Positions 37,317-54,036 of a stretch of 64,000 bases of DNA are shown piece after piece. Where the stretch lies: NCBI GenBank assembly GCA_018093385.1, contig GCA_018093385.1_4808.1; one strand, written 5' to 3'. Positions within the stretch are counted from its first letter, which is position 1. Every line of letters starts with the position of its first letter. The DNA comes from a phage. The translations under genes were made by a program, and so were the position numbers. The notes under the pieces were generated by a model, which was not told the DNA's origin, searched no databases, and saw nothing but the letters and a program-made list of their open reading frames with translations.

Positions 37317-37961
37317 ATGATTAATGCAAACGTAATATCTAAAGGGACCGGATGCAGCATGGATGTTGCTGAAAAATGGGTCGACCCCTTCAAGCAGGCT
37401 TGTGAGCACTACGGAATCAAAAGCAAGAATGCCATCGCGGCGCTGCTTGCAAACGTAGGAGTGGAAACAGGCAGTCTGAAGACCTTTGTGGAAAACCTGA
37501 ATTATTCCGCTCAAGGTCTTGCTAATACGTGGCCTAGCCGTTACAGCGCCAGCGGTCGTTTCGGTGGCGCACCAAACTCCTTGGCATTGTCGATTGCCCG
37601 TAAACCAATGGAAATCGCCAATAATACATATGCAAACCGAATGGGAAATGGTTCGGTAGCATCTGGCGACGGTTGGAAGTACCGTGGCCGTGGTGCCATT
37701 CAGCTGACTGGAAAGGACAACTATGCAGAGTATTCAAAGCAATCAGGGTATGACGCATTGAATAACCCTGACATTTTGACTGAGCCGAAATACATTGCTG
37801 ACAGCGCGGCATGGTTCTTCAAGAACAGCGGTTGCATTCCACTTGCCGATGCGGGCGCATTTGATTCGACCGTGAAGCGGATTAACGGGGCCGCGCCAAA
37901 TACGGCTAACCATGGGGATTTGCGACGGAAGCGTTACAAGGGAGCACTAGCAGTTATGTAA
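37317..37961 (+). CDS. Endolysin, glycoside hydrolase family 19-like
   Basis: GWKYRGRGAIQLTGKDNY resembles the GH19 core; AAGGTGA SD. Confidence 0.65.
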   Translation: MINANVISKGTGCSMDVAEKWVDPFKQACEHYGIKSKNAIAALLANVGVETGSLKTFVENLNYSAQGLANTWPSRYSASGRFGGAPNSLALSIARKPMEIANNTYANRMGNGSVASGDGWKYRGRGAIQLTGKDNYAEYSKQSGYDALNNPDILTEPKYIADSAAWFFKNSGCIPLADAGAFDSTVKRINGAAPNTANHGDLRRKRYKGALAVM

Positions 37962-38932: not shown

Positions 38933-39910
38933 TTAAAAATACTCCATATCGGTAATATCACGGAAGCATTTATACAAAGCAGAGCGCGGCACATCAACAA
39001 TGCCAAAGTTAAAGAATTTATACGTTAGATATTTATCGCGATAGTTCTCGCGATTCTCCCAAAGCATTTTTCTCTCTGCCATAGGCATTGAACCAGCGGA
39101 TACGCGGAAAGGAATCATCTCACCTTTTTCATCCACATATTTTGGATTGACGACTACGAATGAGCCAAGGTGTCCTTTCGCAACTAAACCTTCAGCCTCT
39201 TTTGAACGCTTGGTGCGACCCAATTCGTCAATGAATGCTTCGTTGTTGTTCTCCATCATCTCAACGAAGTCTATGATCAATCCTTCTTCATCGGTCCACG
39301 GCTTGTCCTTCCACACATCACGTGACTTCGGCGTCGCGCGGCCATGCTTGTATTTGCCCGTCCAAGACTTGCCATACAAGCCTTCATATCCAAGCTGGTC
39401 TGCTTCGATTTGCATCGCCGCGTACTGTTCCATATTTTCGATGTTTCGATATTCGAGAGCGCGAAGGAATGGGCGTCGACCATGGTTGATGAGATGTTGA
39501 TTAACTTCAGCAACTCTAGCTCGATAGTTTGCATAACGCTTTTCAAAAGGCAGATCAGGTTCGCTAAAGTCATCAAACACCCACCATGTAAAGTTAGTGA
39601 TTGCATCAGTGTTCATGCATGCAGTATAGGCCTGTTGCATGACGTTCTTGTCATTTGGATTGCCGTCGATTAGCTCTCCATCAAGTCCGTGAATTAATTC
39701 ACCCAAGAAGAGGAACTCTTTTTTGATTTGAATGTTGCGCAGCGCCATGCCGGACGTGCCCATTGGCAAGTTGTCATACGCCATTGCGCGTATGCCATCG
39801 ACCTTGAATGACAATCCGCAAGGCAGCGGCACGTCTTCGCCGCGCTCGATTATTTGCTTACGCTGGCAACCCTTCATTGGTTTTAATGCTTTGATTTCTC
39901 CTGCCATCAC
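38933..39910 (-). CDS. ATP-dependent DNA ligase
   Basis: Nucleotidyltransferase motif I KVDGIR; AAGGAG SD. Confidence 0.7.
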   Translation of the reverse strand: MMAGEIKALKPMKGCQRKQIIERGEDVPLPCGLSFKVDGIRAMAYDNLPMGTSGMALRNIQIKKEFLFLGELIHGLDGELIDGNPNDKNVMQQAYTACMNTDAITNFTWWVFDDFSEPDLPFEKRYANYRARVAEVNQHLINHGRRPFLRALEYRNIENMEQYAAMQIEADQLGYEGLYGKSWTGKYKHGRATPKSRDVWKDKPWTDEEGLIIDFVEMMENNNEAFIDELGRTKRSKEAEGLVAKGHLGSFVVVNPKYVDEKGEMIPFRVSAGSMPMAERKMLWENRENYRDKYLTYKFFNFGIVDVPRSALYKCFRDITDMEYF

Positions 39911-40500
39911 TCAAACTCCTTATTCATCACTTGTTCCAGCGCATAGGCGTAAGCCTGATCAGTCGATTTGATAAACGTGCCGTTGTACATGACGCCTTTG
40001 CGGTCTTTGATGTCTTCGTAGGCAGCTTGCGCACAGTCGGATAAGCGAAGGCCATAATCATGAGCTACGCCGGAAAGGTAATCGACTGCGGCCATGATGG
40101 TGACGTCAATATCCATGGTTTGATTCTTGGCAATAGCATCACCAAGTCGTCCAAGGGTCTTTGCCAGGCGAAGGATAAATGAATGAGGGTGAGCGCCTTT
40201 ATCAGCGCAACCGCCGCCATTAATGTTTTCGATTTCAGCACCGTTTTGCGCTGCCAGGATGGTCAACACGACAAGGCAATCGCCAATGTCGTCCTTAATT
40301 GCGGCTTGCAAGTCACAGATGGCCTGCTCTGTATATCCAATTTCGGGGTCGAAGAACACAAGGTCATGGAGTTGATCAACGTGGTCGGTCAACTCCCCAA
40401 ACTCGCTGATAAGCTTCGGGTATTGGTCCTTAAGGTCGCAACCTTGGATGATGTTACGGTCAGAAGCCCACTGGCGAATGTTTGCATAAATCTGGTTCAT
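39907..40500 (-). CDS. MazG-like nucleoside triphosphate pyrophosphohydrolase (putative)
   Basis: EFGELTDHV...DIGDCLVVLTILA and RLAKTLGRLGD segments resemble MazG helices. Confidence 0.45.
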   Translation of the reverse strand: MNQIYANIRQWASDRNIIQGCDLKDQYPKLISEFGELTDHVDQLHDLVFFDPEIGYTEQAICDLQAAIKDDIGDCLVVLTILAAQNGAEIENINGGGCADKGAHPHSFILRLAKTLGRLGDAIAKNQTMDIDVTIMAAVDYLSGVAHDYGLRLSDCAQAAYEDIKDRKGVMYNGTFIKSTDQAYAYALEQVMNKEFE

Positions 40501-41015
40501 TTATTTTCCTTTGATGCATTGAATTGATCGATTTTTATTTTAGCCTGATTATAAGTATCAATCAAGCTATTAACTTTCTCTTTTAATCGGCTTGTTTCTG
40601 CGGCGAACTGAACAAGAAATCTGACATCTCCTTCTGATAGTCCACAGTTTCCTTCTGGGATAGAGAGGCGTCCAGTGGTCGCAGAGTCGGGCATACTCCT
40701 GAGTAACTCACGGGAGCAGCTGAGTTGCGCGCGCAGCTTGATATTCCCAGACTTGTAACGAGCAATAGTGTCATCAGCAACCAGTTGCGCTTCCTGGCGA
40801 CCTTTCTCATATGCCGATGCCGATTCAACCTGTAAAGATGCAATTTGCTCTTCGAGTGCATTTATCTTGTCCTTACGCTCATTCAGCGATGTCAGATATT
40901 GGTTATCCTTGGCCAGTGATGCGTTGGTTTGCTGCAGGTCTTCAACGTATGATCCAGCGGCAAACGCGCCAACAAGGGCCAGAATCTTCAGGAGCGGTAC
41001 AATTCTTTCTATCAT
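40497..41015 (-). CDS. Rz: i-spanin (Rz-like)
   Basis: N-terminal TM, coiled-coil body, C-terminal resemblance to lambda Rz. Confidence 0.6.
   Translation of the reverse strand: MIERIVPLLKILALVGAFAAGSYVEDLQQTNASLAKDNQYLTSLNERKDKINALEEQIASLQVESASAYEKGRQEAQLVADDTIARYKSGNIKLRAQLSCSRELLRSMPDSATTGRLSIPEGNCGLSEGDVRFLVQFAAETSRLKEKVNSLIDTYNQAKIKIDQFNASKENK
40583..40861 (-). CDS. Rz1: o-spanin (Rz1-like lipoprotein) embedded in +1 frame inside Rz; start uncertain (40861, 40810 or 40774)
   Basis: Basic n-region, hydrophobic LLMTLLLVTSLGI, lipobox-like ISSC, Pro-containing mature part with second Cys. Confidence 0.5.
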   Translation of the reverse strand: MHSKSKLHLYRLNRHRHMRKVARKRNWLLMTLLLVTSLGISSCARNSAAPVSYSGVCPTLRPLDASLSQKETVDYQKEMSDFLFSSPQKQAD

Positions 41016-41024
41016 GATGCACCA

Positions 41025-41056
41025 GATAAATAAAAGGCCGCCAATCGGCAGCCTTG
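41025..41056 (-). terminator. Rho-independent terminator (imperfect GC stem plus U-run on minus strand)
   Basis: AAGGCTGCC-loop-GGCGGCCTT then TTTATTTAT on minus strand. Confidence 0.5.
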
Positions 41057-41072
41057 TTGATTTGATTGTCGA

Positions 41073-41933
41073 TTAAAACTCTTCTGCGTCGGCAGGAGTT
41101 TCATTGACAGGACCAGCGGCACCGCTTGCTTCTTCCTGCTTGCTGCGGTCGATGTTAACGTTGCCGCCCACTACGTCATTGTGGAATGCCTTGGCGACTT
41201 CGTACAGACCTTTGTCCTGCACCAGACCTTCCAGCTCAAACTTCAGAACGGACCAGGTGTTGCCGTCTTTGGACTGGGATGCAGTACCCATGCGAACGAT
41301 GTTCATAAAGGTCGGCGGCGTTTTCAAACCTTGCGGAGTTTGAACTTTCTTCTGCTGCAGCGCGGTCATCAGCATACGAGACGGCTTGATCATCGAAGAA
41401 GTCAAAGACAGCATGGCGCTGCCAAATTCACCCGTTTCTTCGTTCAACAGAATCACGAAGTGGTTACGTGTATCTGCATAGTAAGGAGATTTCTTCTCGT
41501 GCACTTTGCCGTTTTCGTCCGGCACAAATACCTTACCGTTGATCTCAACAGCGCGGCCTGCCGCGACTTCTGCATCAACGTGCTCTTTGGTGAATTCACC
41601 TTTAAAGCCTTTGTCGTCGGACTCGCGACCGCCCCAAAGAATGAAGGTACGTTTGAATGCGCAAGGGATGATCTGCACGCCTTTCTTACCGTCATACAAC
41701 TCACCAGTAACGGTGTTGTAAAGCATGCCAGCTTTTGCGCCAGGAACGTGTTTTGGATCATCTTCGTCGACCATAGGAGACATCTTCTGCAGTACGACGA
41801 TAAAAGGAATGGCATATGCATCGGCATCGGCACCTTCAAAACCAGCGCCAAAATCGGTCATGTCGACAAAATCAGCCATAGCGGACATCTGGGTGTTTTT
41901 CACTGCAACTTCGGTAGTTTCTTTCTTAGACAT
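41073..41933 (-). CDS. Putative ssDNA-binding/recombination protein with acidic C-terminal tail
   Basis: C-terminus ETPADAEEF (acidic, terminal Phe, as in SSB and T7 gp2.5 tails); replication-module context. Confidence 0.35.
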   Translation of the reverse strand: MSKKETTEVAVKNTQMSAMADFVDMTDFGAGFEGADADAYAIPFIVVLQKMSPMVDEDDPKHVPGAKAGMLYNTVTGELYDGKKGVQIIPCAFKRTFILWGGRESDDKGFKGEFTKEHVDAEVAAGRAVEINGKVFVPDENGKVHEKKSPYYADTRNHFVILLNEETGEFGSAMLSLTSSMIKPSRMLMTALQQKKVQTPQGLKTPPTFMNIVRMGTASQSKDGNTWSVLKFELEGLVQDKGLYEVAKAFHNDVVGGNVNIDRSKQEEASGAAGPVNETPADAEEF

Positions 41934-41992
41934 TTGATATTTTCCTATAGTATCAAGTTTCGTGGCAACCTGATTTCAAGATAAAGGTTAAA

Positions 41993-42550
41993 TTACTTTT
42001 TGCTTTTAGGCAAGGTTATTTTAGCTTCTTTGTATTCAAAAACGCTAATATCTTCACTAACTGGATTGCCTGCTTCCAGCTGTTCTTTTACAAATGACTT
42101 CAGTGTAGCAGAATGAACGCCTTGTTTCAATGTGGCTTCAACACCATCTTCACGCAGCGCGGCAACAATCTCTTGCGCCTGTTCGATTTCTTCGCGACCG
42201 AACTCAGCCGTGACGCTGGACTTGATCAGGCCGCCGTAACCGTTGTTGACAAGCCAATCGAAAACTTTTAATTCGTTTTCTTTCTTGATCGAAGCATTCA
42301 CCTTGGACTCGACCTTGATTTTGGTCTTGTCCTCAAGCTTGATCTCAGACACGCCAAGCTCATCCATAACGCCAGGAAGCAGAACAGTTTTGATTTCACT
42401 GATTCGCTGCTTTTGCATATCAGCTTCATCTTCAAGCTCTGTCAAAGCTTCTTGGCGTTCTGCCAGTTCAGATACTAAGCGCGCAAGGCGCTCTTGAATG
42501 CTCTCAGGAGCGACCTGCGGCAAATCATCTTCCCAATTAATATTGCTCAT
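41993..42550 (-). CDS. Hypothetical coiled-coil protein
   Basis: 185 aa, GAAGG SD. Confidence 0.45.
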   Translation of the reverse strand: MSNINWEDDLPQVAPESIQERLARLVSELAERQEALTELEDEADMQKQRISEIKTVLLPGVMDELGVSEIKLEDKTKIKVESKVNASIKKENELKVFDWLVNNGYGGLIKSSVTAEFGREEIEQAQEIVAALREDGVEATLKQGVHSATLKSFVKEQLEAGNPVSEDISVFEYKEAKITLPKSKK

Positions 42551-42810
42551 ATTTTACCTTCTTGCATTAGCCCTTCAACACGGGTCATTTGATAACGTTC
42601 AGGTTTCCAAGCCGCCAAAGCCTTCTCAGCGCCTTTCAAGGTTTTATATGCCTTGATGCCAGGCATAATAACGGTATTCACCCCAGCACCGTTGCCATAA
42701 TCAAACTCTTTAACAACGCGGAACATCCCGTCAATTTCTTTGACCAAAAGACGTTTGAAAGCGATTGCGCCAGTAGCTTCATTTTTGTAACGTTCAAGGA
42801 TGCGTACCAT
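42547..42810 (-). CDS. Hypothetical protein
   Basis: 87 aa, GAGGA SD. Confidence 0.45.
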   Translation of the reverse strand: MVRILERYKNEATGAIAFKRLLVKEIDGMFRVVKEFDYGNGAGVNTVIMPGIKAYKTLKGAEKALAAWKPERYQMTRVEGLMQEGKI

Positions 42811-42884: not shown

Positions 42885-44408
42885 TTAATTCATCTTTTTG
42901 CCGTCGAGGATGTGATCAGCAAGCATAGATTTCATGCTCAGTGAACGCTGAATTTCTTCGTCGATGGTATCAACACCAATAAAATCAACATACAGCACGC
43001 TTGATTTGGTGCCGATGCGGTGATTTCGGTCTTCGGATTGTTTGCGCAACTCGTTGTCATAGTTGCAAGAATAATAGATTGCCAAGTCGGCGGCGGTAAG
43101 CGTGATTCCGATGCCTGCCGCTGCAGCGTGACAAACCAAGACTTGCGTTCCACCGTTCTCGACTGTGTTTTTCTGGAAGTCATCAATCAAGAACTCGCGC
43201 TGCTCTTTTGATGTTTCACCGTTGTACACACCAGTGACCACGCCTTCAGACTCAAGCCAATCCTTAATCTGGTTCATCTCTTCCTTAAAGATGGCCCACA
43301 CAATGAATTTGCGCTCTGGGTCGTCTTCCAGCACCCCTTCCACATAGTCCTTAAAGGCCGTGAATCGTGGGTTGTCTTCCATGTAGACCATCTCATCATA
43401 CACCTTAACAAAGCCTGATGTCACCTGCTTCATCTTAGTGCGAGATGCGATCATCTCAAACTTAACGTTTTCTTCTTCGCCTTTGTACTCCATCAGATAG
43501 TTGTACTCATTCTTGAGTTCATCGTAAACATCGCGTTGTTTAGGCGACAACTCGAAGTCAATAAACTTGTACACCTTCTCTGGAAGGTCCGGCAAGTATT
43601 CCGCTTTTGTCGCACGAAAATAGTGCGGTTCCATCAGCCGGATAAGCTTGTCAAGGTTCTTGTACATCGGTCGGCCAAACTGGTCTTTGCGCGGCACTTG
43701 CGGAATCCCATAGCCATTGCCGCCGATTTTCTTGAGAATGGCCTGCATCTCTGGGTCGTGCGCTTCAAGTAGCACTGTGAATTCAGAGTTGAATGCACGG
43801 AACGATTTGGTGCCAAGCAAGCCAGCTTCAAGGAAGTGGTATTGCATGTAAATATCAGCAGGCGAGCGTGGCAGCGGCGTACCAGAAAGGATTCGACGGG
43901 CCTTTGCCAGCCGTCCCAATTCCACAACCTTGATGGAGCGTTTGGCTGTGTTATTTTTGATACGCGTCGATTCATCAATGATCATCAAACAGCGGTATTT
44001 CTTCAAGACCGACTCAATGTGTTGATAACCGACTGGTGTGTTGACGGTGTCAATGTTGAATGAGAAGATGCGCGCAGGCACTTCGCCTTCAGGGTAGTGA
44101 TCAGCAAACATCTTCTCCCAAAGCGCCTTGCCCTTTTTAGTCTTCATCTTGTCATTGCCGCGCCAGTAATGACCAATCCATTTAATGGAAAGGTGCTCTG
44201 GTGCTTCACGACGAATCCAGTTTGAGTGTACACCGTTAGGAGCGATTACAACCATGGCATCAAACGCGCCAGCAGTGAAATGCTTTTCAAACTCTGCCAA
44301 AGCAGTCCAGGTTTTGCCAAGACCCTGTTCCATGAAATAGGCAAAGTATTTTCTGCGGCCTGCTTTATCAAGCGCCAATAATTGGTGGCGCATTCCTTGT
44401 GTTTTCAT
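42885..44408 (-). CDS. SNF2-family helicase
   Basis: GLGKT Walker A, DEST Walker B-like, helicase C-region. Confidence 0.8.
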   Translation of the reverse strand: MKTQGMRHQLLALDKAGRRKYFAYFMEQGLGKTWTALAEFEKHFTAGAFDAMVVIAPNGVHSNWIRREAPEHLSIKWIGHYWRGNDKMKTKKGKALWEKMFADHYPEGEVPARIFSFNIDTVNTPVGYQHIESVLKKYRCLMIIDESTRIKNNTAKRSIKVVELGRLAKARRILSGTPLPRSPADIYMQYHFLEAGLLGTKSFRAFNSEFTVLLEAHDPEMQAILKKIGGNGYGIPQVPRKDQFGRPMYKNLDKLIRLMEPHYFRATKAEYLPDLPEKVYKFIDFELSPKQRDVYDELKNEYNYLMEYKGEEENVKFEMIASRTKMKQVTSGFVKVYDEMVYMEDNPRFTAFKDYVEGVLEDDPERKFIVWAIFKEEMNQIKDWLESEGVVTGVYNGETSKEQREFLIDDFQKNTVENGGTQVLVCHAAAAGIGITLTAADLAIYYSCNYDNELRKQSEDRNHRIGTKSSVLYVDFIGVDTIDEEIQRSLSMKSMLADHILDGKKMN

Positions 44409-44827
44409 TACAATTCCTCTAAATACTTGATGATGTGATGAATAGTTCCCTTCACGATTATCTCACGTTGAACGTCTGCAGTATTATAACGCTTTAATTC
44501 AATAGAAGGGTGGACTAAATAAAACATCTTCTCAGAATCAACCTTAAGCAGAACAAATGATGGGTATTTCCAATCATTCCACGAAGAAAGAAAGCTGCAT
44601 TGGCCTTTCTCAAATGCATTTCTGAAAGGTGCAGTGGTGGCCCTTGCAGGCCACGATTCAAAGAACTTCATTTCAAGCCAAAAGCCGCGCCCTTTCCGGT
44701 TGGTGCCGATTACGTCCGGCACGCCATCGCCCGTCATTGACTCGATTCGTTGAAGCTTCAATACCGATTCTGAATGCTTCTTCAAAGGCACGAATATGTA
44801 TTTCTGCTCACGGTTATTTGTTGCCAT
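44408..44827 (-). CDS. VRR-NUC domain nuclease
   Basis: GVPD...LEMK PD-(D/E)xK-type motif; adjacent to SNF2 helicase. Confidence 0.6.
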   Translation of the reverse strand: MATNNREQKYIFVPLKKHSESVLKLQRIESMTGDGVPDVIGTNRKGRGFWLEMKFFESWPARATTAPFRNAFEKGQCSFLSSWNDWKYPSFVLLKVDSEKMFYLVHPSIELKRYNTADVQREIIVKGTIHHIIKYLEEL

Positions 44828-47711
44828 CTGGATACACCTGTTTGATCACGTCAACGATGAACATATCAATGCCTTCAAGCTTGCGACCTTTCATCAGGAA
44901 GAATGCGCCGTTCCCGACGTTTTCAGCGATGTACTTCCCGTACTTCTGGAACTTCTCTGGACGAATCCTGAAGCGCATTGGCGAGTCGGTCGAGTCGTCT
45001 TTGCACATAAGGTCGATGAACTGAGTCTCAAGCTTGTTCCCGTACTGGTCAAACTCTGCGTAGCGGCCATCAGCTTGAAGACCCTTTTTAAGCTTGCCGT
45101 GCTTTGTATAGATGCCGCGCTCAAGTCGTTTACGGATGCGTGTTGCTTCGTTCTCGTCCGCAAGCACTTTCTTTGTCAACTTGCCGATTACTATTGCGCG
45201 CTCGTCATCACCGACTTCCTTCATCTGGCGTATTGAAGCGCCGGACGTCACACCAATCAGATACGGGTCATTATACGCCCAGCCGAACTTTGTGTGCATC
45301 TCTGTAAGGTCGCCGTATTTTACTTCAGCATTGGCCAATGCGTCCTTTTGCTTCTGCGTTAAGGTTCCGGCTTCACGCGCTTCGATATACTTCATCGCTT
45401 TCACCATGCCGTACCCTTTCGCATTCATGATGCCGCCGATTAGCTTTCCGTTCGCGATGGTCCAGTTCATTGAAGAGTGATCAGGGTCGATTGGCACATA
45501 ATCCACACCTTCCTTCGCAAGTTCACGTAATATCGCAATCGTCTGGTCTTCGTCCTTAGCAGCGCGTAAGCAGGCTGCGGCAAATTCCAACGGGTAGTGT
45601 CGCTTAAGCCACAAGGTCCAGTAGGTCACGACCGCGTATGACACGGAGTGTGACTTGTTAAAGCCCCATGACCCGAACGTGGCCATCGCTTGCCAAAGCT
45701 TTCTTGCATCCGCTTCCGGTACGCCGTTATTGATTGCGCCTGCAACAAAGTCCTCGCCAAGCTTGTTAAAGTATTCTTCACCCTTACGGCCTGACATCGC
45801 CTTACGCACAGCTGACGTTTTCGCCCAGTCAAATGAACCAATCTCTTTAACCACGGCCATGATTTGCTCTTGGTAAAGAAACACGCCGTAAGTCTCTTTC
45901 AAGTACGGCTCAAGCTGCGGCACGTCGTACTCAATCGGCGCACGTCCTGCCGCGCGTTCAATGTATTTCTGGGCCATACCGGATGACAACGGGCCAGGTC
46001 GACCCAAAGCTGTCAGGTTGTCGATTTTGTTAAAGTTGTCGACGTGCACAAAGTTTGTTACTGAGCGTACAGCATCACCTTCAAACTGGAAGATGCCTGA
46101 CATCTTGTTTTCGTTAAGAATGTCAAGGACGCTTTGATCATCAAGTTTGATTCCGTAGAGCGTTTCAGCATCAATAACGCCTGTATCAGAAATAATGCCG
46201 AGAGTACGAAGGCCCAGCGCATCAAGCTTCAAAAGGTTGAGGTATTCACTGTCAGGCTTATCGATTTGCGCAATCCCTTCTGCAGTTACAGTACAGTAAT
46301 CAGAGATTGGGTCATTACACACAATGATGCCCGCTGCGTGAACACCTGTGTGAGACGGGTGAATCTCAAGGTCACCCATGCAACGCGCGGCGTCAGGATA
46401 TTTCGCCACGAACTCTTGGCCCGTGGTCGTTGTTGCAAAGGTATCCTCCAGGCCGTGACCATAACGGGCGTCACCGGATGAGTATTCAAGCAATGCGTTT
46501 TTAATGTTGGCCGTTTCGTGGTATCCAATGTTGAACTTCTTACCAACCTGCGCCATTACTGAGTTGGCCTTAAGAGTGTTGATGTTGCCAAGCTTCGCAA
46601 CGTTCATTTCGCCGTATTTCTCTTTAAGATAATCAAACACCATATAGCGTTTGGTATCTTCAAAGTCGATGTCGATGTCAGGAAGGTCGGCGCGGCTTAC
46701 GTCGATGAATCGGGCAAACAGCAGCTTATACGGGATTGGGTCCACTTCCGTGATGCCGAGGCAATAGCAAACAAGTGAACCGGCCGATGAGCCGCGAGCA
46801 GGACCGACGAGCATTTTTGTTTTTGCGAATCGTACAAGGTCCGCTACTACCAGAAAGTATGAGTCGAAATCTTTCAGCTGAATCTGGTGAATTTCTTCGT
46901 TGAAGCGGTCCTCGTATTCCTGAGTCCATTCTTTGATGTGACCTGCTTTTAGACGGTACTCCATGCCCTCGCGAGCAAGCTTTACCATGTCACCAGCAAG
47001 TTGAATAATCGGTGCCTTACGCAATTTCAGGTCAAGTCCGACTATGCCGTTTGCTATGTCAACAGCATTGGCCGTTGCCTGATTGAGCTCGTCTTCAGTC
47101 AAGATGCCTTTAAGCTGTTTGCGCAAGTCTTCCGAGTCAACGATGCAGTGCGGCTTGACCGTGTCGCGCACTTCCCAAGCATAAGCGAAGTCAACGTGCT
47201 CAGGAGAAGGCATGTGATTGTATCCGGTTAAAACCAGCGGCCTTCCGTTGCTGCGGTGAGCCAACACCTGGCGCTTAGCCAAAAGGAACGACGATGGGTT
47301 GACGTCTATATAGTCGTAGTCCTCTGGCCGCAGCAGCTCCACGGCACCGCCACAGAATTTAACGACGCCATCAAGCGCACCGAACTCTGCACGGGTAAGC
47401 CCACCGCGCTGCGTTGAAAGTGTTGTAGCGTTGTAAAAAGATTTTAAGTCAAGGGCCAATATCCAAGCCTTCGGTTTGAATCCCTTTTTAGGGTCCGCAT
47501 CAGGGTCGATGATTGGAATCTCCATTCCAAACATAGGCTTAATATCATTTTTCTGGCATTCCTTTTCCCAGCGAACGTGACCCCATGTGTTGTTATCAAC
47601 TAATGCCGCGACTTCGCAGCCCAACTCTTTGAGCCGTGCTATAATTTCAGGATGCCGTCCATAAACTTCTTTGAACGTGTAACCGCTGCGAACTCTCAAT
47701 TGTGGAAACAT
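44814..47711 (-). CDS. dnaE: DNA polymerase III alpha subunit-like replicative polymerase (DnaE-like, PHP domain)
   Basis: 965 aa; PHP-like N-terminus, DIDIDFED segment, polymerase core. Confidence 0.75.
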   Translation of the reverse strand: MFPQLRVRSGYTFKEVYGRHPEIIARLKELGCEVAALVDNNTWGHVRWEKECQKNDIKPMFGMEIPIIDPDADPKKGFKPKAWILALDLKSFYNATTLSTQRGGLTRAEFGALDGVVKFCGGAVELLRPEDYDYIDVNPSSFLLAKRQVLAHRSNGRPLVLTGYNHMPSPEHVDFAYAWEVRDTVKPHCIVDSEDLRKQLKGILTEDELNQATANAVDIANGIVGLDLKLRKAPIIQLAGDMVKLAREGMEYRLKAGHIKEWTQEYEDRFNEEIHQIQLKDFDSYFLVVADLVRFAKTKMLVGPARGSSAGSLVCYCLGITEVDPIPYKLLFARFIDVSRADLPDIDIDFEDTKRYMVFDYLKEKYGEMNVAKLGNINTLKANSVMAQVGKKFNIGYHETANIKNALLEYSSGDARYGHGLEDTFATTTTGQEFVAKYPDAARCMGDLEIHPSHTGVHAAGIIVCNDPISDYCTVTAEGIAQIDKPDSEYLNLLKLDALGLRTLGIISDTGVIDAETLYGIKLDDQSVLDILNENKMSGIFQFEGDAVRSVTNFVHVDNFNKIDNLTALGRPGPLSSGMAQKYIERAAGRAPIEYDVPQLEPYLKETYGVFLYQEQIMAVVKEIGSFDWAKTSAVRKAMSGRKGEEYFNKLGEDFVAGAINNGVPEADARKLWQAMATFGSWGFNKSHSVSYAVVTYWTLWLKRHYPLEFAAACLRAAKDEDQTIAILRELAKEGVDYVPIDPDHSSMNWTIANGKLIGGIMNAKGYGMVKAMKYIEAREAGTLTQKQKDALANAEVKYGDLTEMHTKFGWAYNDPYLIGVTSGASIRQMKEVGDDERAIVIGKLTKKVLADENEATRIRKRLERGIYTKHGKLKKGLQADGRYAEFDQYGNKLETQFIDLMCKDDSTDSPMRFRIRPEKFQKYGKYIAENVGNGAFFLMKGRKLEGIDMFIVDVIKQVYPDGNK

Positions 47712-48253
47712 TATTTACTCCAGATGTCATATACGCCAATTTGTTGGCAGACTTTGTGCAGTAATATTACGTCGTCTAATGCACGGTGCTTCTGTTCATA
47801 TTTTCCGAAATATAATTCATACAGCTCTTGAAGCTTAACTCTTCGGCCAAAAATAGGCAAGGTTTGCTCAACTGTACATATGTTTATTTCTGGAAAATTA
47901 ACATCATCAAGCGTAAGTCCTTCGCGCTGTAGTGCATAATCAAGAATGTTTTTATCGAACGCATGGTTGTGCGCGATAGTTGCATCAGTCTTCTTGAAGA
48001 TTTCTTTTAGCTGCGGGACGAAATTGATGAACGGTGGATTGCACTCAAGGTCTTCATTTGTTAATCCGGTAATCTTTGTGATGATTTCTTCGATCACGAT
48101 TTCAGGATTAATTATGAATTCAAACGTTTCAAGAATCTCTTTGCCGTCTGTCAGCAAGCCTGCAAATTCAATAGGGCGCGGCTGCATTCCAAGCGGCGCT
48201 TTCGGGTGCACGGTTAATCCGGTTGTTTCGAAGTCATAAGGGAGAAATAACAC
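47711..48253 (-). CDS. DnaQ-like 3'-5' proofreading exonuclease (GTG start)
   Basis: Exo motifs YDFETTGL, HNHAFD, HRALDD; AGGAGG SD. Confidence 0.75.
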   Translation of the reverse strand: MLFLPYDFETTGLTVHPKAPLGMQPRPIEFAGLLTDGKEILETFEFIINPEIVIEEIITKITGLTNEDLECNPPFINFVPQLKEIFKKTDATIAHNHAFDKNILDYALQREGLTLDDVNFPEINICTVEQTLPIFGRRVKLQELYELYFGKYEQKHRALDDVILLHKVCQQIGVYDIWSK

Positions 48254-48307: not shown

Positions 48308-48859
48308 TTATACAGTGTACGGAGTACCGTCTTGATTTAAGCGCACGATAAACTTCAAATCAACGCCGATGATTTCACGCGTATCAAAGATCACATAGTT
48401 GTAACGACGTTGACCAGCAATGTTCGGGTTGGTATGAGAGTCAGTTACAACTTCCTGTGCAACCTGAATACCTTCTTCGCTAAAGAACTTACGCCATTCA
48501 GCAAGTTCAGCGGCAGTCACGTGCATACCAAGGTGGCTGACCTGATTGTCATGCGCATCGATATATTCGATGTTTTCGTTAATCCAGTTGCAGCCCATTG
48601 TGTAGTCAAGGATTTCAAGCTCAAGAGGCTTACCAGCGCCGCCATCAGTACCGTTGCCAGCCTGATAGTTGAAGCGCAAGTCAGCTTCATTGGTGCAATC
48701 GTCGCGACGACCTTTAAAGTCATCAGCTTCAAATACGCGACCAGTAGCAACAACATGATCATGGAACCATTCTGTCAGGCCGATTTTAGCCAAGAAATCC
48801 TGTGCGCGCTGAGCATCTGGAATTGACAGGGCGATTTGTTCAATTTTAAAATGTGGCAT
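48308..48859 (-). CDS. VOC-fold (glyoxalase/dioxygenase-like) protein, putative
   Basis: Two beta-alpha-beta-like modules; weak motif-level call. Confidence 0.35.
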   Translation of the reverse strand: MPHFKIEQIALSIPDAQRAQDFLAKIGLTEWFHDHVVATGRVFEADDFKGRRDDCTNEADLRFNYQAGNGTDGGAGKPLELEILDYTMGCNWINENIEYIDAHDNQVSHLGMHVTAAELAEWRKFFSEEGIQVAQEVVTDSHTNPNIAGQRRYNYVIFDTREIIGVDLKFIVRLNQDGTPYTV

Positions 48860-48955
48860 TTTGTTTCCTTAATTAAATATTATTGATTAATTACTGTGTT
48901 GTCTTCGTCCTGTTTCTTTTCAGGAGCGGGTGTGACAACTTCAAATGTTCGTGAT

Positions 48956-49639
48956 TTATTTACCAAATGGAATATCAGTACCAGACATAAAGCGCCATGC
49001 GCCTGTAATTAAGATATGGCGAATGAAGTCAGCAATTACTTGCGGCTCAGTCTCCAATCCATTCATCAATGCCTTTTTCTGGTATTCAGCGGCGTATTCA
49101 GGAGTCCAGCCGCGAGTCGCGCAAACTGCATCTTCAATCTGTTTAGACATGCCAGTGCCGCGCAACTTGTTAGGACTAATAGAGAATACCGTGATGCCGT
49201 ACTTAGGCGTAAGTTCGTGAGCCATCTGCTTGCTGATCATAAGCGCAGCGGCCTTGGATGCATTATAACACAAGCTGGACGTCATAGGAATATGCGCAGC
49301 GTTGGAAACGATGTTGATCACAAAGCCTTTGTTGTCGATAAGACTTTTCAGCGCAGCCTGAGTCGTGTTAACGAAAGAGAATGCGTTGGTGTGCATAACG
49401 CGGTTAAACTCTTCATAGTTTACATCTTCAAACCAATTGTTAGAGTTGACACCAGCACAGTTGATCAAGCCTTCAACATCATATGGGCTTAAAATTTCTT
49501 TCATCTGTTTAGCATCGCGGACGTCATATCCGTATGCTGAATCGATGCCAAGCACGTTATGACCGTAAGCGCCAAGGGTGTCAAAAATAGATTTACCAAG
49601 ACCGGAATTGGAACCTGTTACAACAATTACTTTTTTCAT
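48956..49639 (-). CDS. Short-chain dehydrogenase/reductase (classical SDR)
   Basis: TGSNSGLG, NCAG, YNASK motifs. Confidence 0.7.
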   Translation of the reverse strand: MKKVIVVTGSNSGLGKSIFDTLGAYGHNVLGIDSAYGYDVRDAKQMKEILSPYDVEGLINCAGVNSNNWFEDVNYEEFNRVMHTNAFSFVNTTQAALKSLIDNKGFVINIVSNAAHIPMTSSLCYNASKAAALMISKQMAHELTPKYGITVFSISPNKLRGTGMSKQIEDAVCATRGWTPEYAAEYQKKALMNGLETEPQVIADFIRHILITGAWRFMSGTDIPFGK

Positions 49640-49660
49640 TTATTTATCCTTTTTGGACTT

Positions 49661-49704
49661 CGTTTCGATGAGGTAAATATAACTCATCGAAACGCACAAG
49701 TAAA
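49661..49704 (-). promoter_or_regulatory. Promoter TTTACT-N17-TATATT with 12-bp perfect inverted repeat (49661-49672 / 49683-49694) centred on the -10
   Basis: Read directly on minus strand upstream of SDR gene. Confidence 0.5.
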
Positions 49705-50580
49705 CTATTTATTGAAATTAATATTATGGGTGTTTACAAGACGTTCACACATGGCGCTATAAACACCATCGTCGTGTATTGAGTCTTCGTGCTTCAGGCC
49801 GCTGATTGCGAAGCGTGTAAGCTTGACAATCTTAAGCTCGAACAGATGCCACATGTGGTAGTCTTCCGGTGTTTTCAGCGTCACGCCATTAGGGAACAGT
49901 ACCTGCATAACCTGACCTACCATCACAGCGTTATCGCCATAGACAGCGTTGCGCTCACGGAAGGTCGCGGCCATCGCATCAAGAATATCGGCGGCGGTTG
50001 CTGGGCCTTGTGGTTCAACTTCAACAACTTTAGTCTCTTCTTTCCCTGTTGCGCTTGGATCAACTGCTAATTGCTGCACCATTTCACCTGCCTTGCAAAG
50101 ATTAAATGTAAAAGCGATTTTATTTTGAGCAACGGAATTATAATACAAGGCTTCATCTTGCATCGCCGCGAGTACGTCTTGTCGGTCGTCGAATACATTA
50201 ATGATTCGATAATCGCCGTGCCGCAAAGCGTGCGATAGCCATCCAGATTTCATAATAGTTGATGGACGTTTGTCGCCAGAGTCTCTCATCTTGATTGTAA
50301 ATTCATCAAAAGGGAAAACATTGTCCAGACGTTCAAAAGTCACTTGTCTGTATTTTTCTGGCCTTGCAGTCCAATATTCAACCGCCTCACCGCGAAGAGA
50401 TGCCGACTCTACTGCTGATGCAATGTGAGGATAGAACTGATCATAACCAATACCGCTGTGATAGTCATCATAGTCTGACAACGGACCTGCCACCTTGATG
50501 CGGTCTAAGCGCCAACGGTCATCAAACAGCGTTCCGTCAAGGTCGAATACGTTTAAGATTTCGCTGTTTTTAATGCTCAT
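49705..50580 (-). CDS. HAD-superfamily phosphatase-like protein with uncharacterised C-terminal domain
   Basis: HAD motif I DLDGTL near N-terminus. Confidence 0.5.
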   Translation of the reverse strand: MSIKNSEILNVFDLDGTLFDDRWRLDRIKVAGPLSDYDDYHSGIGYDQFYPHIASAVESASLRGEAVEYWTARPEKYRQVTFERLDNVFPFDEFTIKMRDSGDKRPSTIMKSGWLSHALRHGDYRIINVFDDRQDVLAAMQDEALYYNSVAQNKIAFTFNLCKAGEMVQQLAVDPSATGKEETKVVEVEPQGPATAADILDAMAATFRERNAVYGDNAVMVGQVMQVLFPNGVTLKTPEDYHMWHLFELKIVKLTRFAISGLKHEDSIHDDGVYSAMCERLVNTHNINFNK

Positions 50581-51380
50581 CCTTTTGATACTCCATCTTT
50601 AGCAACTGGATTGTTGGTGATTGGCATTGCACTCCAAAACTGGATGCGCAACTCTTCTTGCTGTGCCGTGGTATCCATCCAATCACGATACCAAGGGCAA
50701 TGGGCTTTGCCATGACGAGGAAACGCGCACTTACCCATACCGATGCACTGGGGCTGTAGTAAAGGATTGGCCCACGGGTGCACCTTAAGGACTTCCGCAA
50801 CCATTGCACGGAATACTTCTTGATACTCGCCTTGAGTACGCGTGCACAAGCGGTTAGAGGCCATTTGTTGCAGAGTGCGCAAGTTGAACTTTGCCATGAT
50901 ATGCGTTTGCATATTAGAAGGCAACACGGCACGTGCATCTTGAATCTCTGCGCCAGCCGCGCGAAGTTCTTGGTATAGGGCGTCAATGGTTGCCATTGCA
51001 TCATCCCATTTCTCTGCCAGTTCAGCAGCCTTCTCGTCATGACGAGTCCATCCCTTTGGATCATCCTCTGGGTAAGTAAATTTGGCAGGACGAATCGCAT
51101 CAAATGCTGACGACTCCTGAGCGCGGCTTGTGCGTTCTTGATATGCACCTGTGCGTGTGCGCACCATCTGATGAGTCATATTCTTTGATACATCAGTGAT
51201 GTCAAAGATATAGTCCACAAAGTCAAAAGGCGACTTGATTGTATCAAGCATGTAGCGCCAGTGCTCTTGCTTCTCTGATTCTGTCATCTCAGAGACTGGC
51301 TTACCAGTCATGCGCGTGTTCTTTGTTTCCAGCAAAAGGTCAAGTGCATCTTGGGTGTATCGAATTAATTCAACTTTCAT
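50577..51380 (-). CDS. thyX: Flavin-dependent thymidylate synthase (ThyX-like)
   Basis: VRTRTGAYQERTSR resembles the ThyX RHR...S...R signature. Confidence 0.55.
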   Translation of the reverse strand: MKVELIRYTQDALDLLLETKNTRMTGKPVSEMTESEKQEHWRYMLDTIKSPFDFVDYIFDITDVSKNMTHQMVRTRTGAYQERTSRAQESSAFDAIRPAKFTYPEDDPKGWTRHDEKAAELAEKWDDAMATIDALYQELRAAGAEIQDARAVLPSNMQTHIMAKFNLRTLQQMASNRLCTRTQGEYQEVFRAMVAEVLKVHPWANPLLQPQCIGMGKCAFPRHGKAHCPWYRDWMDTTAQQEELRIQFWSAMPITNNPVAKDGVSKG

Positions 51381-51393
51381 TTTAATTATCCTA

Positions 51394-51840
51394 TTAACGG
51401 TAATTCACTAGTTGCTGATCACCAGAGAAGGTGCAATGATAAACGAATTGTGCGTTATAAAGCAACTGAAAACTTTTCTTTGGTTCATTATTAGAACTCA
51501 TTGATGTAAAGATTTCTGCACCAGAACGGTTTTCACCAATCAGGTTAATAAAGCCGCCAGTTGAACGAGGCTGAACGAAAGTGAAACGCTGCATCCACGG
51601 AGTCCGGTTGGCACCTTTTCCGGTGAATCCCTGAATCTGAATATTCAGACCTTCTTGCTCGTTCACACCGATGTAAGTGGTAATTGTTGCGCCAGTCGTC
51701 GCTGCGGTCTTGCCGTCCATCGCTTCGCAATCGTAAACAGCGATTGAATCGGAAGTACGGACAGCGGCTTCAGTCGCTTCCATATACATGGTTCCGAGAA
51801 TAGCAGTCGCGGCAAGCGCGATTCCAGTGATGCGTTTCAT
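51394..51840 (-). CDS. Secreted protein of unknown function
   Basis: Signal peptide MKRITGIALAATAILGTMYMEATEAA; AGAGGAAA SD. Confidence 0.5.
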   Translation of the reverse strand: MKRITGIALAATAILGTMYMEATEAAVRTSDSIAVYDCEAMDGKTAATTGATITTYIGVNEQEGLNIQIQGFTGKGANRTPWMQRFTFVQPRSTGGFINLIGENRSGAEIFTSMSSNNEPKKSFQLLYNAQFVYHCTFSGDQQLVNYR

Positions 51841-51858
51841 TTTCGTTTCCTCTATGAG

Positions 51859-51905
51859 TTCTGCTTCAATGATTAAAGTATACGCCCATTGAAGCAGAAA
51901 GCAAA
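51859..51905 (-). promoter_or_regulatory. Promoter TTTGCT-N17-TATACT with 13-bp perfect inverted repeat (51859-51871 / 51887-51899) flanking the -10
   Basis: Read directly; same architecture as 49661-49704. Confidence 0.5.
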
Positions 51906-52901
51906 TTATTTATTAGCAATATAAGCAAATTTTTGATAGTTATTTGCTTTGATGAGTTTTTCAACTTCAGCAAGGTCATGAGCGACGTCATCAAGCAAAA
52001 TGTTTCGCCAAGTAGCGAATCGACCGACACTAAATACGTTCAAATCCATAGTCAACTGGAGCAGTAAGGCGTGGCGCAAGTCTTTCGGAATGTCGACAAT
52101 TTTGCCATACTTCTGGTCAACCTTTTCAACTTCTTCCAAAGAGATGTCATTCCATGAAAGACCAAAAGCGGTAAGAACTTCATCCACTTCTGCACGCAGC
52201 TTCATGTCGCGATAACGGGTAATGCCGCCAGCGGCTTCAACTGCTGCCGCGCTGACGCTTACCAATGGAATTGTTTCAATGATCAGCGTGTCACCAGTGA
52301 TTGATGCGCGGTAAGTCCTTACAGAATAGTCAGGGAAGTAAATTGTTTGATAAAGTTCACACTTGCGCTTAATCTTAAAACGATAAACGCGAATATTTGC
52401 CTTATCAAACGAGAAGTCGAGCTTTTGATCAATACCAGCAAGCTTCATCATGACTGGCAGCGGCGATGTGTTGATGATTGGCGTCTCGCTATAGCCGCAA
52501 AGCGTGTCGACCGGAGTATTAAAGAATATACGGTCACCCAGTTTATCGACAAGTTGATCATAAAAGTCATCCGGCGCTATGTAGCGCGTAGCAGTTTGAA
52601 GCTTCATGATTGAGCGGCTGCCAAACTGGTTGGTGACTTTCATAGAGTACATATTGGCAAGGTTAATCGGGCAGTGGCCGTGATAGTAGTTGCCACGAAA
52701 ATACACAGCCTTATCGACTGTCACGGCCTTAAAGGGGATTCCGGTAATACGGCTTACTTCTTCGCCGCGAAATCGTAGCAGCGCCTTGTGCTGCGCGACG
52801 CGTTCGCCTGCTTCGTACACAATAGAGTTCGGAAAGTGACAAGCCGTGATAAGTCCTGCCAGTCCGCCGCCGATAATCATTACAGGTTGTTTCATGTTCA
52901 T
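51906..52901 (-). CDS. FAD/NAD(P)-binding oxidoreductase (UDP-galactopyranose mutase / amine-oxidase-like fold, putative)
   Basis: N-terminal Rossmann IIGGGLAGL; C-terminal GRFATWRNILLDDV resembles the family tail. Confidence 0.5.
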   Translation of the reverse strand: MNMKQPVMIIGGGLAGLITACHFPNSIVYEAGERVAQHKALLRFRGEEVSRITGIPFKAVTVDKAVYFRGNYYHGHCPINLANMYSMKVTNQFGSRSIMKLQTATRYIAPDDFYDQLVDKLGDRIFFNTPVDTLCGYSETPIINTSPLPVMMKLAGIDQKLDFSFDKANIRVYRFKIKRKCELYQTIYFPDYSVRTYRASITGDTLIIETIPLVSVSAAAVEAAGGITRYRDMKLRAEVDEVLTAFGLSWNDISLEEVEKVDQKYGKIVDIPKDLRHALLLQLTMDLNVFSVGRFATWRNILLDDVAHDLAEVEKLIKANNYQKFAYIANK

Positions 52902-53034: not shown

Positions 53035-53877
53035 TTATTCTGCTTGATCGTCGTGCTCTTCGGCATCTGCTTCGGATTCAACATCGATGAACTCGATGTG
53101 GCCCATCTCTTCCAGTTTGCTCAGGTAAGAGCGAACTGAAGCGCCAAACAGCTGATCTTTAACTTTTTCACCCAGCTCGTCGATAGACTGCGGCTGACCG
53201 ATTTCACCTTCTTTGATCGCAGCCAGTACGCGACCACGGGTGGAATGTTCTTGCGGCTGGCTCAGGCCGTTTCCGGTGTAAACAAAGTGAGTTGCTTTAG
53301 CGCGACGCTGACCATTAGCTTTCTTGGCGGCTTTACGCTCTGCAATCGCTTTGCGACGCTCTTCAGCTTCTTTCTTACGCTGTTCTTTCTGTTGTTCTGC
53401 AGCTTCTTTCGCCGCGATCTTAGCAGCTTCACGCTCTGCCTTGCGTTTCGCTTTCGCTTCTTCTTTAGCCTTTTCTTTTTCGGCTTTCGCTTCTGCACGG
53501 GCCTGATCACGTTCAGCCTTTTTCGCCGCAGCTTGTTCAGCTTTCAGGCGCTTGGCTTCTTCTTTCGCCTTTGCCTTTTCAATTTCTTTAGCGGCTTTAG
53601 CGGCTTCACGCTCTGCCTTCTTAGCAGCAGCCTTTTCAGCACGCTCTGCAGCCTTCTTAGCGGCTTCTTCAGCACGCTTCTGAGCCTTCTCGTCAGCAGC
53701 CTGCTTGCGTTTCAGCGCAGCTTCTTCACGCTTGGCTTGTTTTTCCTGCTCACGCTTCTGGCGTTTTTCTTCGGCTTCTTTCTTTTTAGCCAGGCGTTTT
53801 TCTTCAGCCACGCGACGACGTTCTGCTGCGGCTGCTTGTTTTTCTTCTTTAGATAATACTTTGATTGCTTCGGCCAT
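53035..53877 (-). CDS. Lys/Ala/Glu-rich low-complexity protein with globular C-terminal domain
   Basis: About 190 aa of KAE repeats then about 85 aa of normal composition; ATG 53877 has AAGGA SD (ORF track 53883 is GTG). Confidence 0.5.
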   Translation of the reverse strand: MAEAIKVLSKEEKQAAAAERRRVAEEKRLAKKKEAEEKRQKREQEKQAKREEAALKRKQAADEKAQKRAEEAAKKAAERAEKAAAKKAEREAAKAAKEIEKAKAKEEAKRLKAEQAAAKKAERDQARAEAKAEKEKAKEEAKAKRKAEREAAKIAAKEAAEQQKEQRKKEAEERRKAIAERKAAKKANGQRRAKATHFVYTGNGLSQPQEHSTRGRVLAAIKEGEIGQPQSIDELGEKVKDQLFGASVRSYLSKLEEMGHIEFIDVESEADAEEHDDQAE

Positions 53878-54036
53878 ATTCACAGTCCTTAAATAAATTA
53901 GTTTATTTTATATTCCCCGTTTGGGATAACTTAATTATGCCTTCAGTCGCCGCCAGTAGCAACTAAAAACTATGGCGGCAATGCCACTTTAATTAAACTG
54001 ATTTTCAGTTTTATTTTTCGTAAATTTACGTCAACA

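Follow-up and report, generated by a model that had tools for sequence, protein, structure and literature searches.

A Pam3_Gp34-family protein as a predicted SSB-like protein of a Wifcevirus phage

The 64,000-nucleotide (nt) stretch of DNA analysed here (NCBI GenBank assembly GCA_018093385.1, contig GCA_018093385.1_4808.1; hereafter the window) comes from a Wifcevirus myophage of E. coli and is 99% identical to phages ECML-117 and Mansfield. On its minus strand, at 41073..41933, lies a gene for a 286-amino-acid (aa) protein of the Pam3_Gp34 family, referred to below as the gp34-like protein. An initial annotation had read this product as resembling a single-stranded DNA (ssDNA)-binding protein (SSB), on the basis of its C-terminal tail, its operon context and a terminator behind the gene. 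Our computational analysis supports that reading: the gp34-like protein is probably an ssDNA-binding, SSB-like protein. We are less confident that it acts specifically as the replicative SSB and not as a factor for recombination. Support for the SSB-like reading comes from the conservation of the tail, the lack of any other recognisable SSB in the window, the codon bias of the gene and its constant partner gene, DUF7307.

Tail, fold and expression of the gp34-like protein

The open reading frame (ORF) was found as first described, with a product that starts with MSKKETTEVAV and ends in ...NETPADAEEF (fuller end GPVNETPADAEEF); its stop codon occupies 41073..41075. The gene and the parts of its product are as follows.

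41073..41933, minus strand: coding sequence (ORF) of the Pam3_Gp34-family protein, candidate phage SSB, 286 aa; PF23977, PHROG 2402
41076..41090, minus strand: C-terminal tip D-A-E-E-F-COOH, aa 282-286; family motif P-x-[DE]-A-[DE]-x-F
41091..41168, minus strand: low-complexity linker, predicted disordered, rich in Gly, Ala, Ser and acidic residues, aa 256-281; predicted local distance difference test (pLDDT) 62, then below 50; variable columns
41169..41804, minus strand: folded core, predicted ssDNA-binding domain, aa 44-255; OB-type beta fold with three helices
41805..41891, minus strand: conserved acidic/aromatic N-terminal extension, aa 15-43; consensus F-x-D-x-x-D-F-G-x-G-F-E-G-A-D-x-D-x-x-A-I-P-F

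The acidic, aromatic-terminated tail noted at the outset is widely conserved in the family. A terminal Phe occurs in all 119 full-length close homologues (50-99% identity) and in 106 (74%) of the 143 full-length proteins found among the best 150 distant representatives, clustered at 50% identity; in this distant set the last residue is Tyr or Trp in nine more proteins and one of Met, Leu, Ile and Val in 15. Phe is also the last residue in 78 of 79 IMG/VR loci that carry a gp34-like gene. By comparison, 5 of the 86 ORFs in the window are Phe-terminated. Among the close homologues, column -4 is Ala in 97%, column -3 Glu or Asp in 96% and column -7 Pro in 77%; the ~15 residues before the tip are variable, drawn from Gly, Ala, Ser and acidic residues, and the tip is the best-conserved part of the C-terminal 30 residues. 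Conservation of the tail is far beyond chance, and the alignments indicate that the acidic, Phe-ended tail is under strong purifying selection.

The tip of E. coli SSB is DDDIPF, T4 gp32 carries an acidic C-terminal domain, and replisomes are known to assemble around SSB-type proteins and their tips. The conserved A-[DE]-x-F tip could therefore serve as a handle for finding the phage interaction network. Because this clade tip is unlike the host DDDIPF, phage-encoded partners are weakly favoured. Endings in the bacterial SSB style, [DE]-[IVLMA]-P-F, occur in 17 of the distant representatives (e.g. DDDDIPF, ADDIPF and DDEVPF).

Prediction of an oligonucleotide/oligosaccharide-binding (OB) fold, the check originally suggested for an SSB-like role, gave a positive outcome. 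In an AlphaFold2 model built on a 51-sequence alignment (mean pLDDT 83.5; core residues 44-255 mostly 86-97; residues 1-13, 31-39 and 272-286 below 50), the core is predicted to adopt a beta-rich, OB-type fold with three long hairpins and three helices. Its fold neighbours include Rim1, LEF-3, Stn1, RPA70, PriB and many bacterial and mitochondrial SSBs. Six core aromatics (W100, F110, Y151, F209, W227 and F232) are invariant or nearly so, and basic residues are conserved at K50, K67, R95, R103, K111, K147/148, R156, K183 and K196. The N-terminal extension, modelled mostly at low confidence, has conserved columns at F22, D27, G31, F32, E33, G34, D36 and P43. The only Cys, C91, lies in a column that is not invariant, and the protein lacks a zinc-binding cluster.

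No further SSB is recognisable in the window: among the 54 non-structural window proteins scanned, none matched the Pfam SSB, gp32, gp2.5, Enc34 or Gp3-like families, and the ~29-68 kb of the Mansfield record examined carries no annotated SSB. Codon bias, scored for 64 genes against a list of established E. coli optimal codons with correction for amino-acid composition, is high in the gp34-like gene. It ranks third of 64 with a z of 4.7, equal to the tail sheath (z 4.7); only the putative major capsid protein (z 8.3) and the KAE-rich protein described below (z 5.1) score higher, and DUF7307 shows no bias (z 0.7). As soft evidence, these values are consistent with a coating protein that is abundant and whose DUF7307 partner is sub-stoichiometric.

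From these properties we infer ssDNA binding, perhaps cooperative, in replication, recombination or both. In the proposed mechanism, the gp34-like protein would be the phage's own ssDNA-binding protein, drawn from PF23977, whose ~210-residue OB-type core (aa 44-255) would coat ssDNA at forks and recombination intermediates, gripping it by aromatic stacking and basic contacts. The N-terminal extension (aa 15-43) may provide contacts between neighbouring molecules or self-association, or may gate the cleft, and the flexible low-complexity linker would join the core to the tip. By analogy with E. coli SSB, T7 gp2.5 and T4 gp32, the DAEEF-COOH tip would dock on partner proteins and compete with ssDNA for the basic cleft. 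Its partners might include DUF7307, the UvsW-like SNF2 helicase, the Pol III alpha-like and epsilon-like proteins and the VapE-type helicase.

Operon context, the DUF7307 partner and a recombination-specific role

The claimed setting in a recombination/replication operon was confirmed by the flanking genes. The leftward operon encodes, in order, Pol III epsilon, Pol III alpha, a VRR-NUC-like protein, an SNF2/UvsW-like helicase, an 87-aa ORF and DUF7307, with the gp34-like gene last; past the terminator come the genes for spanins, MazG and an ATP-dependent ligase. The window also encodes, at other sites, a Dda/RecD-like helicase, a RepB-type primase and, at 58101..59771 on the plus strand, a helicase of the VapE/DUF5906 type, which relatives annotate as 'DNA primase'.

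47711..48253, minus strand: Pol III epsilon-like exonuclease (Mansfield annotation; RNase_T, PHROG 192)
44814..47711, minus strand: Pol III alpha-like polymerase (Mansfield annotation)
44408..44827, minus strand: VRR-NUC-like / Holliday-junction-resolvase-like protein (PHROG 2165, weak PHROG 843; syntenic in PB1-like loci)
42885..44408, minus strand: SNF2-family (UvsW-like) helicase (Pfam SNF2-rel_dom and Helicase_C; a note in the Mansfield record gives an HHpred match to T4 UvsW)
42547..42810, minus strand: 87-aa ORF (PHROG 27467; in the slot held by a Pam3_gp32-like gene in most relatives, not homologous to it)
41993..42550, minus strand: DUF7307 (Pam3 gp33-like), 185 aa, partner gene (PF23984, E 3e-37; PHROG 2378)
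41939..41968, minus strand: weak sigma-70-like promoter match (TTGCCA-18-GAAAAT, 9/12) in the 59-nt gap upstream of the gp34-like gene; consensus match only
41940..41946, minus strand: ribosome-binding site AGGAAAA, 6 nt 5' of the ATG (read from the sequence; also annotated there in Mansfield)
41024..41055, minus strand: intrinsic-terminator-like hairpin with T-tract closing the operon (read from the sequence; terminator in Mansfield)

The terminator reported behind the gene is indeed present, 18 nt past the stop codon, where the Mansfield record annotates one as well. Its hairpin (41055..41034, minus strand) has a 9-base-pair stem with six G-C pairs and a 4-nt loop, followed by TTATTTAT. Sigma-70-like sites in the region are not clearly more numerous than in shuffled controls.

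In 77 of the 79 IMG/VR loci, the gene just upstream of the gp34-like gene, on the same strand, encodes DUF7307; contig ends truncate the other two loci. Phages E217, M6, Pan1 and J2 share this gene order. The AlphaFold2 model of DUF7307 (pLDDT 76) has a long N-terminal coiled coil, helix 18-65, and a small alpha/beta domain, and fold comparison gave no informative match. A Mu Gam/Ku-like identity for DUF7307 was considered and is not supported (hhalign probability 0.8%). Within that low-probability alignment to Mu Gam, 96 columns fall in the expected register of coiled coil, strand and helix, the last bearing the motif '...L..xG...[LF]I[KR]T'; this is at most a hint that DUF7307 might bind DNA ends as Gam and Ku do. 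The third family of the cassette, PF23992 (Pam3 gp32-like; PHROG 5888, ~115-120 aa), precedes DUF7307 in 51 of the 79 loci, as in the following examples.

Locus L003, 10882..11235: PF23992 in phage M6 (ORF042)
Locus L004, 10944..11312: PF23992 in phage Pan1 (gp42)

The SNF2/UvsW-like helicase is likewise syntenic in PB1-like loci and in M6, Pan1 and J2. In 12 diverse non-PB1-like loci, the neighbours of the gp34-like gene include a DUF5906 helicase (eight loci), a RepB primase (six loci), PolA (family A polymerase), SNF2 and UvrD-like helicases and RNase_T exonucleases. The gp34 cassette thus travels with replication modules of differing polymerases. We also propose, tentatively and at low odds, that the Pam3 gp32-gp33-gp34 cassette forms a phage module for handling ssDNA that is widespread but has so far escaped recognition. 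In such a module, an OB protein akin to gp3 and gp32 but lacking zinc, with a tip in the style of bacterial SSB, would form an obligate pair with the coiled-coil DUF7307. If so, it would represent a new SSB-plus-loader, SSB-plus-mediator or annealing system, unlike the phage recombination systems of the Rad52, Rad51 and gp2.5 types.

The same synteny bears on the most serious alternative, which we consider unlikely: a recombination-specific ssDNA protein that acts in annealing or as a mediator, as T7 gp2.5 or BRCA2 does, and not as a general replicative SSB. The protein would then form a unit with DUF7307, and often with the Pam3_gp32-like protein, beside the UvsW-like helicase and the VRR-NUC nuclease, and would serve fork restart or recombination-dependent replication while the host SSB or another phage SSB coats the bulk of the ssDNA. 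The near-constant placement of DUF7307, seen in five distinct phage lineages, the frequent PF23992 gene and the syntenic helicase and nuclease genes are all in keeping with such a unit. So is the presence, in some relatives, of a separate small SSB of PHROG 7364 directly downstream of the gp34-like gene, as in Vibrio phage J2 and loci L082 and L084.

Locus L005, 10190..10666: small SSB of PHROG 7364, J2 gp30
Locus L082, 10976..11254: small SSB of PHROG 7364
Locus L084, 3318..3596: small SSB of PHROG 7364

This small SSB ends in ...MDFDDDIPF, the exact bacterial tip, and has no Pfam SSB match. In these phages two predicted OB-type proteins with tips thus stand side by side. The gp34-like protein beside it ends in ...DFPDEM in J2, and in L082 and L084 still in ...GAIPF. 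Since the gp34-like family is thus not always the sole SSB, it may have a more specialised job, perhaps one specific to recombination. In the present phage, however, no other SSB is recognisable among the 54 proteins scanned, and a codon bias equal to that of the tail sheath points to a very abundant protein. Moreover, no RecA/UvsX/Sak4-type or Rad52-type recombinase for which it could mediate was found in the window, and the fold of DUF7307 offers no informative match that would help this alternative.

Comparison with known SSBs and the remaining alternatives

The resemblance of the gp34-like protein to SSBs, as modelled, is structural only, and several results weigh against an SSB-like role. 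Profile and hhalign comparisons detected no sequence homology to any known SSB family. Single-sequence and family-profile searches against the PDB returned nothing useful and no gp32, and a Foldseek search of the model against the PDB found nothing significant (top match RPA, E 0.015, with a poor template modelling score). A Pfam scan of 50 diverse family members gave PF23977 alone in all 50. The core has a calculated isoelectric point (pI) of 7.15, near neutral and not clearly basic. Classical SSB systems have nothing that corresponds to the near-obligate DUF7307 partner, and the separate SSB of J2, L082 and L084 counts on the same side. Further, T7 gp2.5 gave no Pfam match and an hhalign probability of 0.1% against the gp34-like family alignment, and PF18897, the Gp3-like family, matches phiC31 gp3 and not the gp34-like protein, with an hhalign probability of 0.5% against a 38-sequence alignment of the gp3 family and a likewise negative result against the phiC31 gp3 sequence by itself.

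Among known systems, the modelled fold appears closest to those of gp3/gp25 and gp32, and the tail design is closest to those of gp2.5 and bacterial SSB. The gp3 proteins of phiC31 and TG1 (gp25 in the latter; PF18897) are phage SSBs that double as the recombination directionality factor (RDF) of large serine integrases. This family was lately shown to be a moonlighting phage SSB, and TG1 gp25 bound ssDNA, not double-stranded DNA, in electrophoretic mobility shift assays (PMC11795197). The predicted structure of TG1 gp25 has BRCA2 as its first neighbour and gp32 as its next (PMC11795197), the same neighbours as the gp34-like model, and the two families are predicted to have a three-dimensional fold in common. 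A short 'G-S/T-W' motif aligns residues 223-236 of the gp34-like protein with 176-189 of gp3, without significance. The differences are clear: gp3 has a Cys/His zinc cluster (HHCDG...CGC; invariant H115, H116, C117, C135 and C137) with no counterpart in the gp34-like protein, and it ends in ...NDAIAD, without the acidic, Phe-ended tail. Pfam scans of the 54 window proteins found no serine-integrase, resolvase or recombinase domain, and an RDF role is therefore not expected for the gp34-like protein.

The cooperativity motif of gp32 is basic. The acidic N-terminal extension of the gp34-like protein (pI 4.05) is unlike this motif of T4 gp32, and its short linker with a 5-residue tip differs from the ~50-residue acidic C-terminal domain of gp32. 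Neither Pfam nor profile searches against the PDB revealed sequence similarity to T4 or RB69 gp32, and the gp34-like protein lacks the Cys3-His zinc site. Bacterial SSB (PF00436) shares the overall layout of OB fold, disordered linker and acidic, Phe-ended tip that is predicted for the gp34-like protein. Its OB domain, however, is about half the size of the gp34-like core, which has extra strands and helices, and PF00436 matched neither the gp34-like protein (E 0.1) nor the 50 diverse members (E 0.05), nor was there a match in NCBIfam.

T7 gp2.5 (PF21265/PF10991) and the gp34-like protein are both phage proteins of 230-290 aa with an OB fold, predicted in the latter, and both have acidic tails, ending in ...EEADEDGDF, with an essential Phe, and ...ETPADAEEF, respectively. 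T7 gp4 has an acidic-Phe C-terminus too, and the replicative helicase-primase of the present phage, the VapE-type helicase, is tailed in the same manner (DKDEF). By this analogy, the twin tails of the gp34-like protein and the VapE-type helicase recall the T7 gp2.5/gp4 pair and hint at a shared docking site.

Similar endings were observed in other replication proteins. The VapE-type helicase ends in ...RDKDEF in the window and in ...ILGEDF in Pseudomonas phage E217 (locus L002, 837..2576, minus strand); these are two lineages only, and an IMG/VR search with the VapE-like helicase gave solely near-identical phages. Several primase or helicase ORFs adjoining gp34-like genes in other lineages end in ...SNEPF, ...KKEDF or ...VEKF. 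The ATP-dependent DNA ligase of the window (38933..39910, minus strand) has an acidic-aromatic C-terminus, ...DITDMEYF.

The exact bacterial tip ...DDIPF in some family members, the tip's standing as the best-conserved part of the C-terminal 30 residues and the co-occurrence of a true SSB in some phages would also suit an SSB mimic or decoy. In this scenario, an OB-like body would not coat DNA, and the acidic-Phe tip would capture host proteins that bind the SSB C-terminus (ExoI, RecQ, RecJ, PriA, the chi subunit and others), which would be recruited or disarmed. We regard this as quite improbable, as this clade carries A-[DE]-x-F at its tip where the host has DDDIPF, and the fold neighbours are genuine ssDNA binders. 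In addition, a core of ~210 residues in which many aromatic and basic positions are invariant, kept across at least 4800 clusters, exceeds the needs of a tether.

A lysis or structural protein without a nucleic-acid role is hardly credible: it has in its favour the 'putative holin' label given to the homologue in phage phiLCL12 (cluster P0093) and the Rz-like spanin gene next downstream, against which stand a predicted soluble, beta-rich domain, the terminator between the gp34-like gene and the spanin genes, and primases and helicases, not lysis genes, downstream in other lineages. The holin label itself is untenable, and the lysis reading effectively refuted, because the gp34-like protein has no hydrophobic or transmembrane segment (maximum Kyte-Doolittle 19-residue mean 1.14).

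By sequence, the gp34-like protein is a bona fide member of PF23977 only. It matches this family with E 4e-86 (289.1 bits against a cut-off of 27; residues 15-259 on positions 3-234 of the 235-position profile) and PHROG 2402 with E 2.9e-105; neither family has a recorded function, and an NCBIfam search gave no match. ECML-117, F13 and Mansfield each encode a 'hypothetical protein' that shares 99.3-99.7% identity with it, and the gene is named hypothetical in all 37 annotated phage records among those listed. A literature search on Pfam family names, Pam3 gp34, and Pbunavirus/PB1-like or phiVC8 SSB found no study of the protein. Searching 1.84 billion cluster representatives (50% identity) with a family profile gave at least 4800 members at E <= 0.001. 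Relatives of the gp34-like protein occur in Pbunavirus (~54% identity), Yuavirus M6 (29%), the Vibrio podophages J2 and QH (24%), Bordetella phage CN2 and cyanophage Pan1. The family thus spans myo-, sipho- and podophages of Proteobacteria and cyanobacteria, the therapeutic Pbunavirus group included.

The combination of an OB core and an acidic tip is a classical design, and phages are expected to have SSBs, so that an SSB-like role would be no conceptual surprise; the novelty lies in a large unannotated family with an obligate partner gene. If PF23977 proteins are SSB-like, they would fill a gap in the replisome of Wifcevirus and Pbunavirus, in whose examined records no SSB is annotated. The SSB-like label would give a function to a family of several thousand clusters and would also flag DUF7307 and PF23992, two families of unrecorded function that travel with it.

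Other genes of the window

Lysis genes are split in the window. The Rz-like i-spanin gene (40497..41015, minus strand), with an embedded o-spanin ORF (40583..40861, minus strand), sits inside the replication block, between the terminator and the MazG and ligase genes, and the endolysin gene (37317..37961, plus strand) is distant from both.

Between the polymerase genes and the helicase gene, at 48308..52901 on the minus strand, lies a cluster of five genes that encode a glyoxalase-family protein, a short-chain dehydrogenase, an HAD/PNKP-type phosphatase, ThyX and UDP-galactopyranose mutase. In unrelated loci, too, genes for ThyX, HAD_PNKP and adh_short are found close to the gp34 cassette. The cluster is a candidate DNA-modification pathway. 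Wifcevirus phages are reported to withstand all tested restriction systems without known genome protection (BASEL study, PMC11990801).

The KAE-rich protein, second in codon bias in the window, is a 282-aa protein of PHROG 4765 (53035..53883, minus strand) with no Pfam or PDB match. Some 200 of its residues form a Lys/Ala/Glu-rich low-complexity region akin to histone H1 tails, and it ends with a short globular region, winged-helix-like by eye, and an acidic tail (...EADAEEHDDQAE). Possibly it is made in abundance and coats or condenses DNA.

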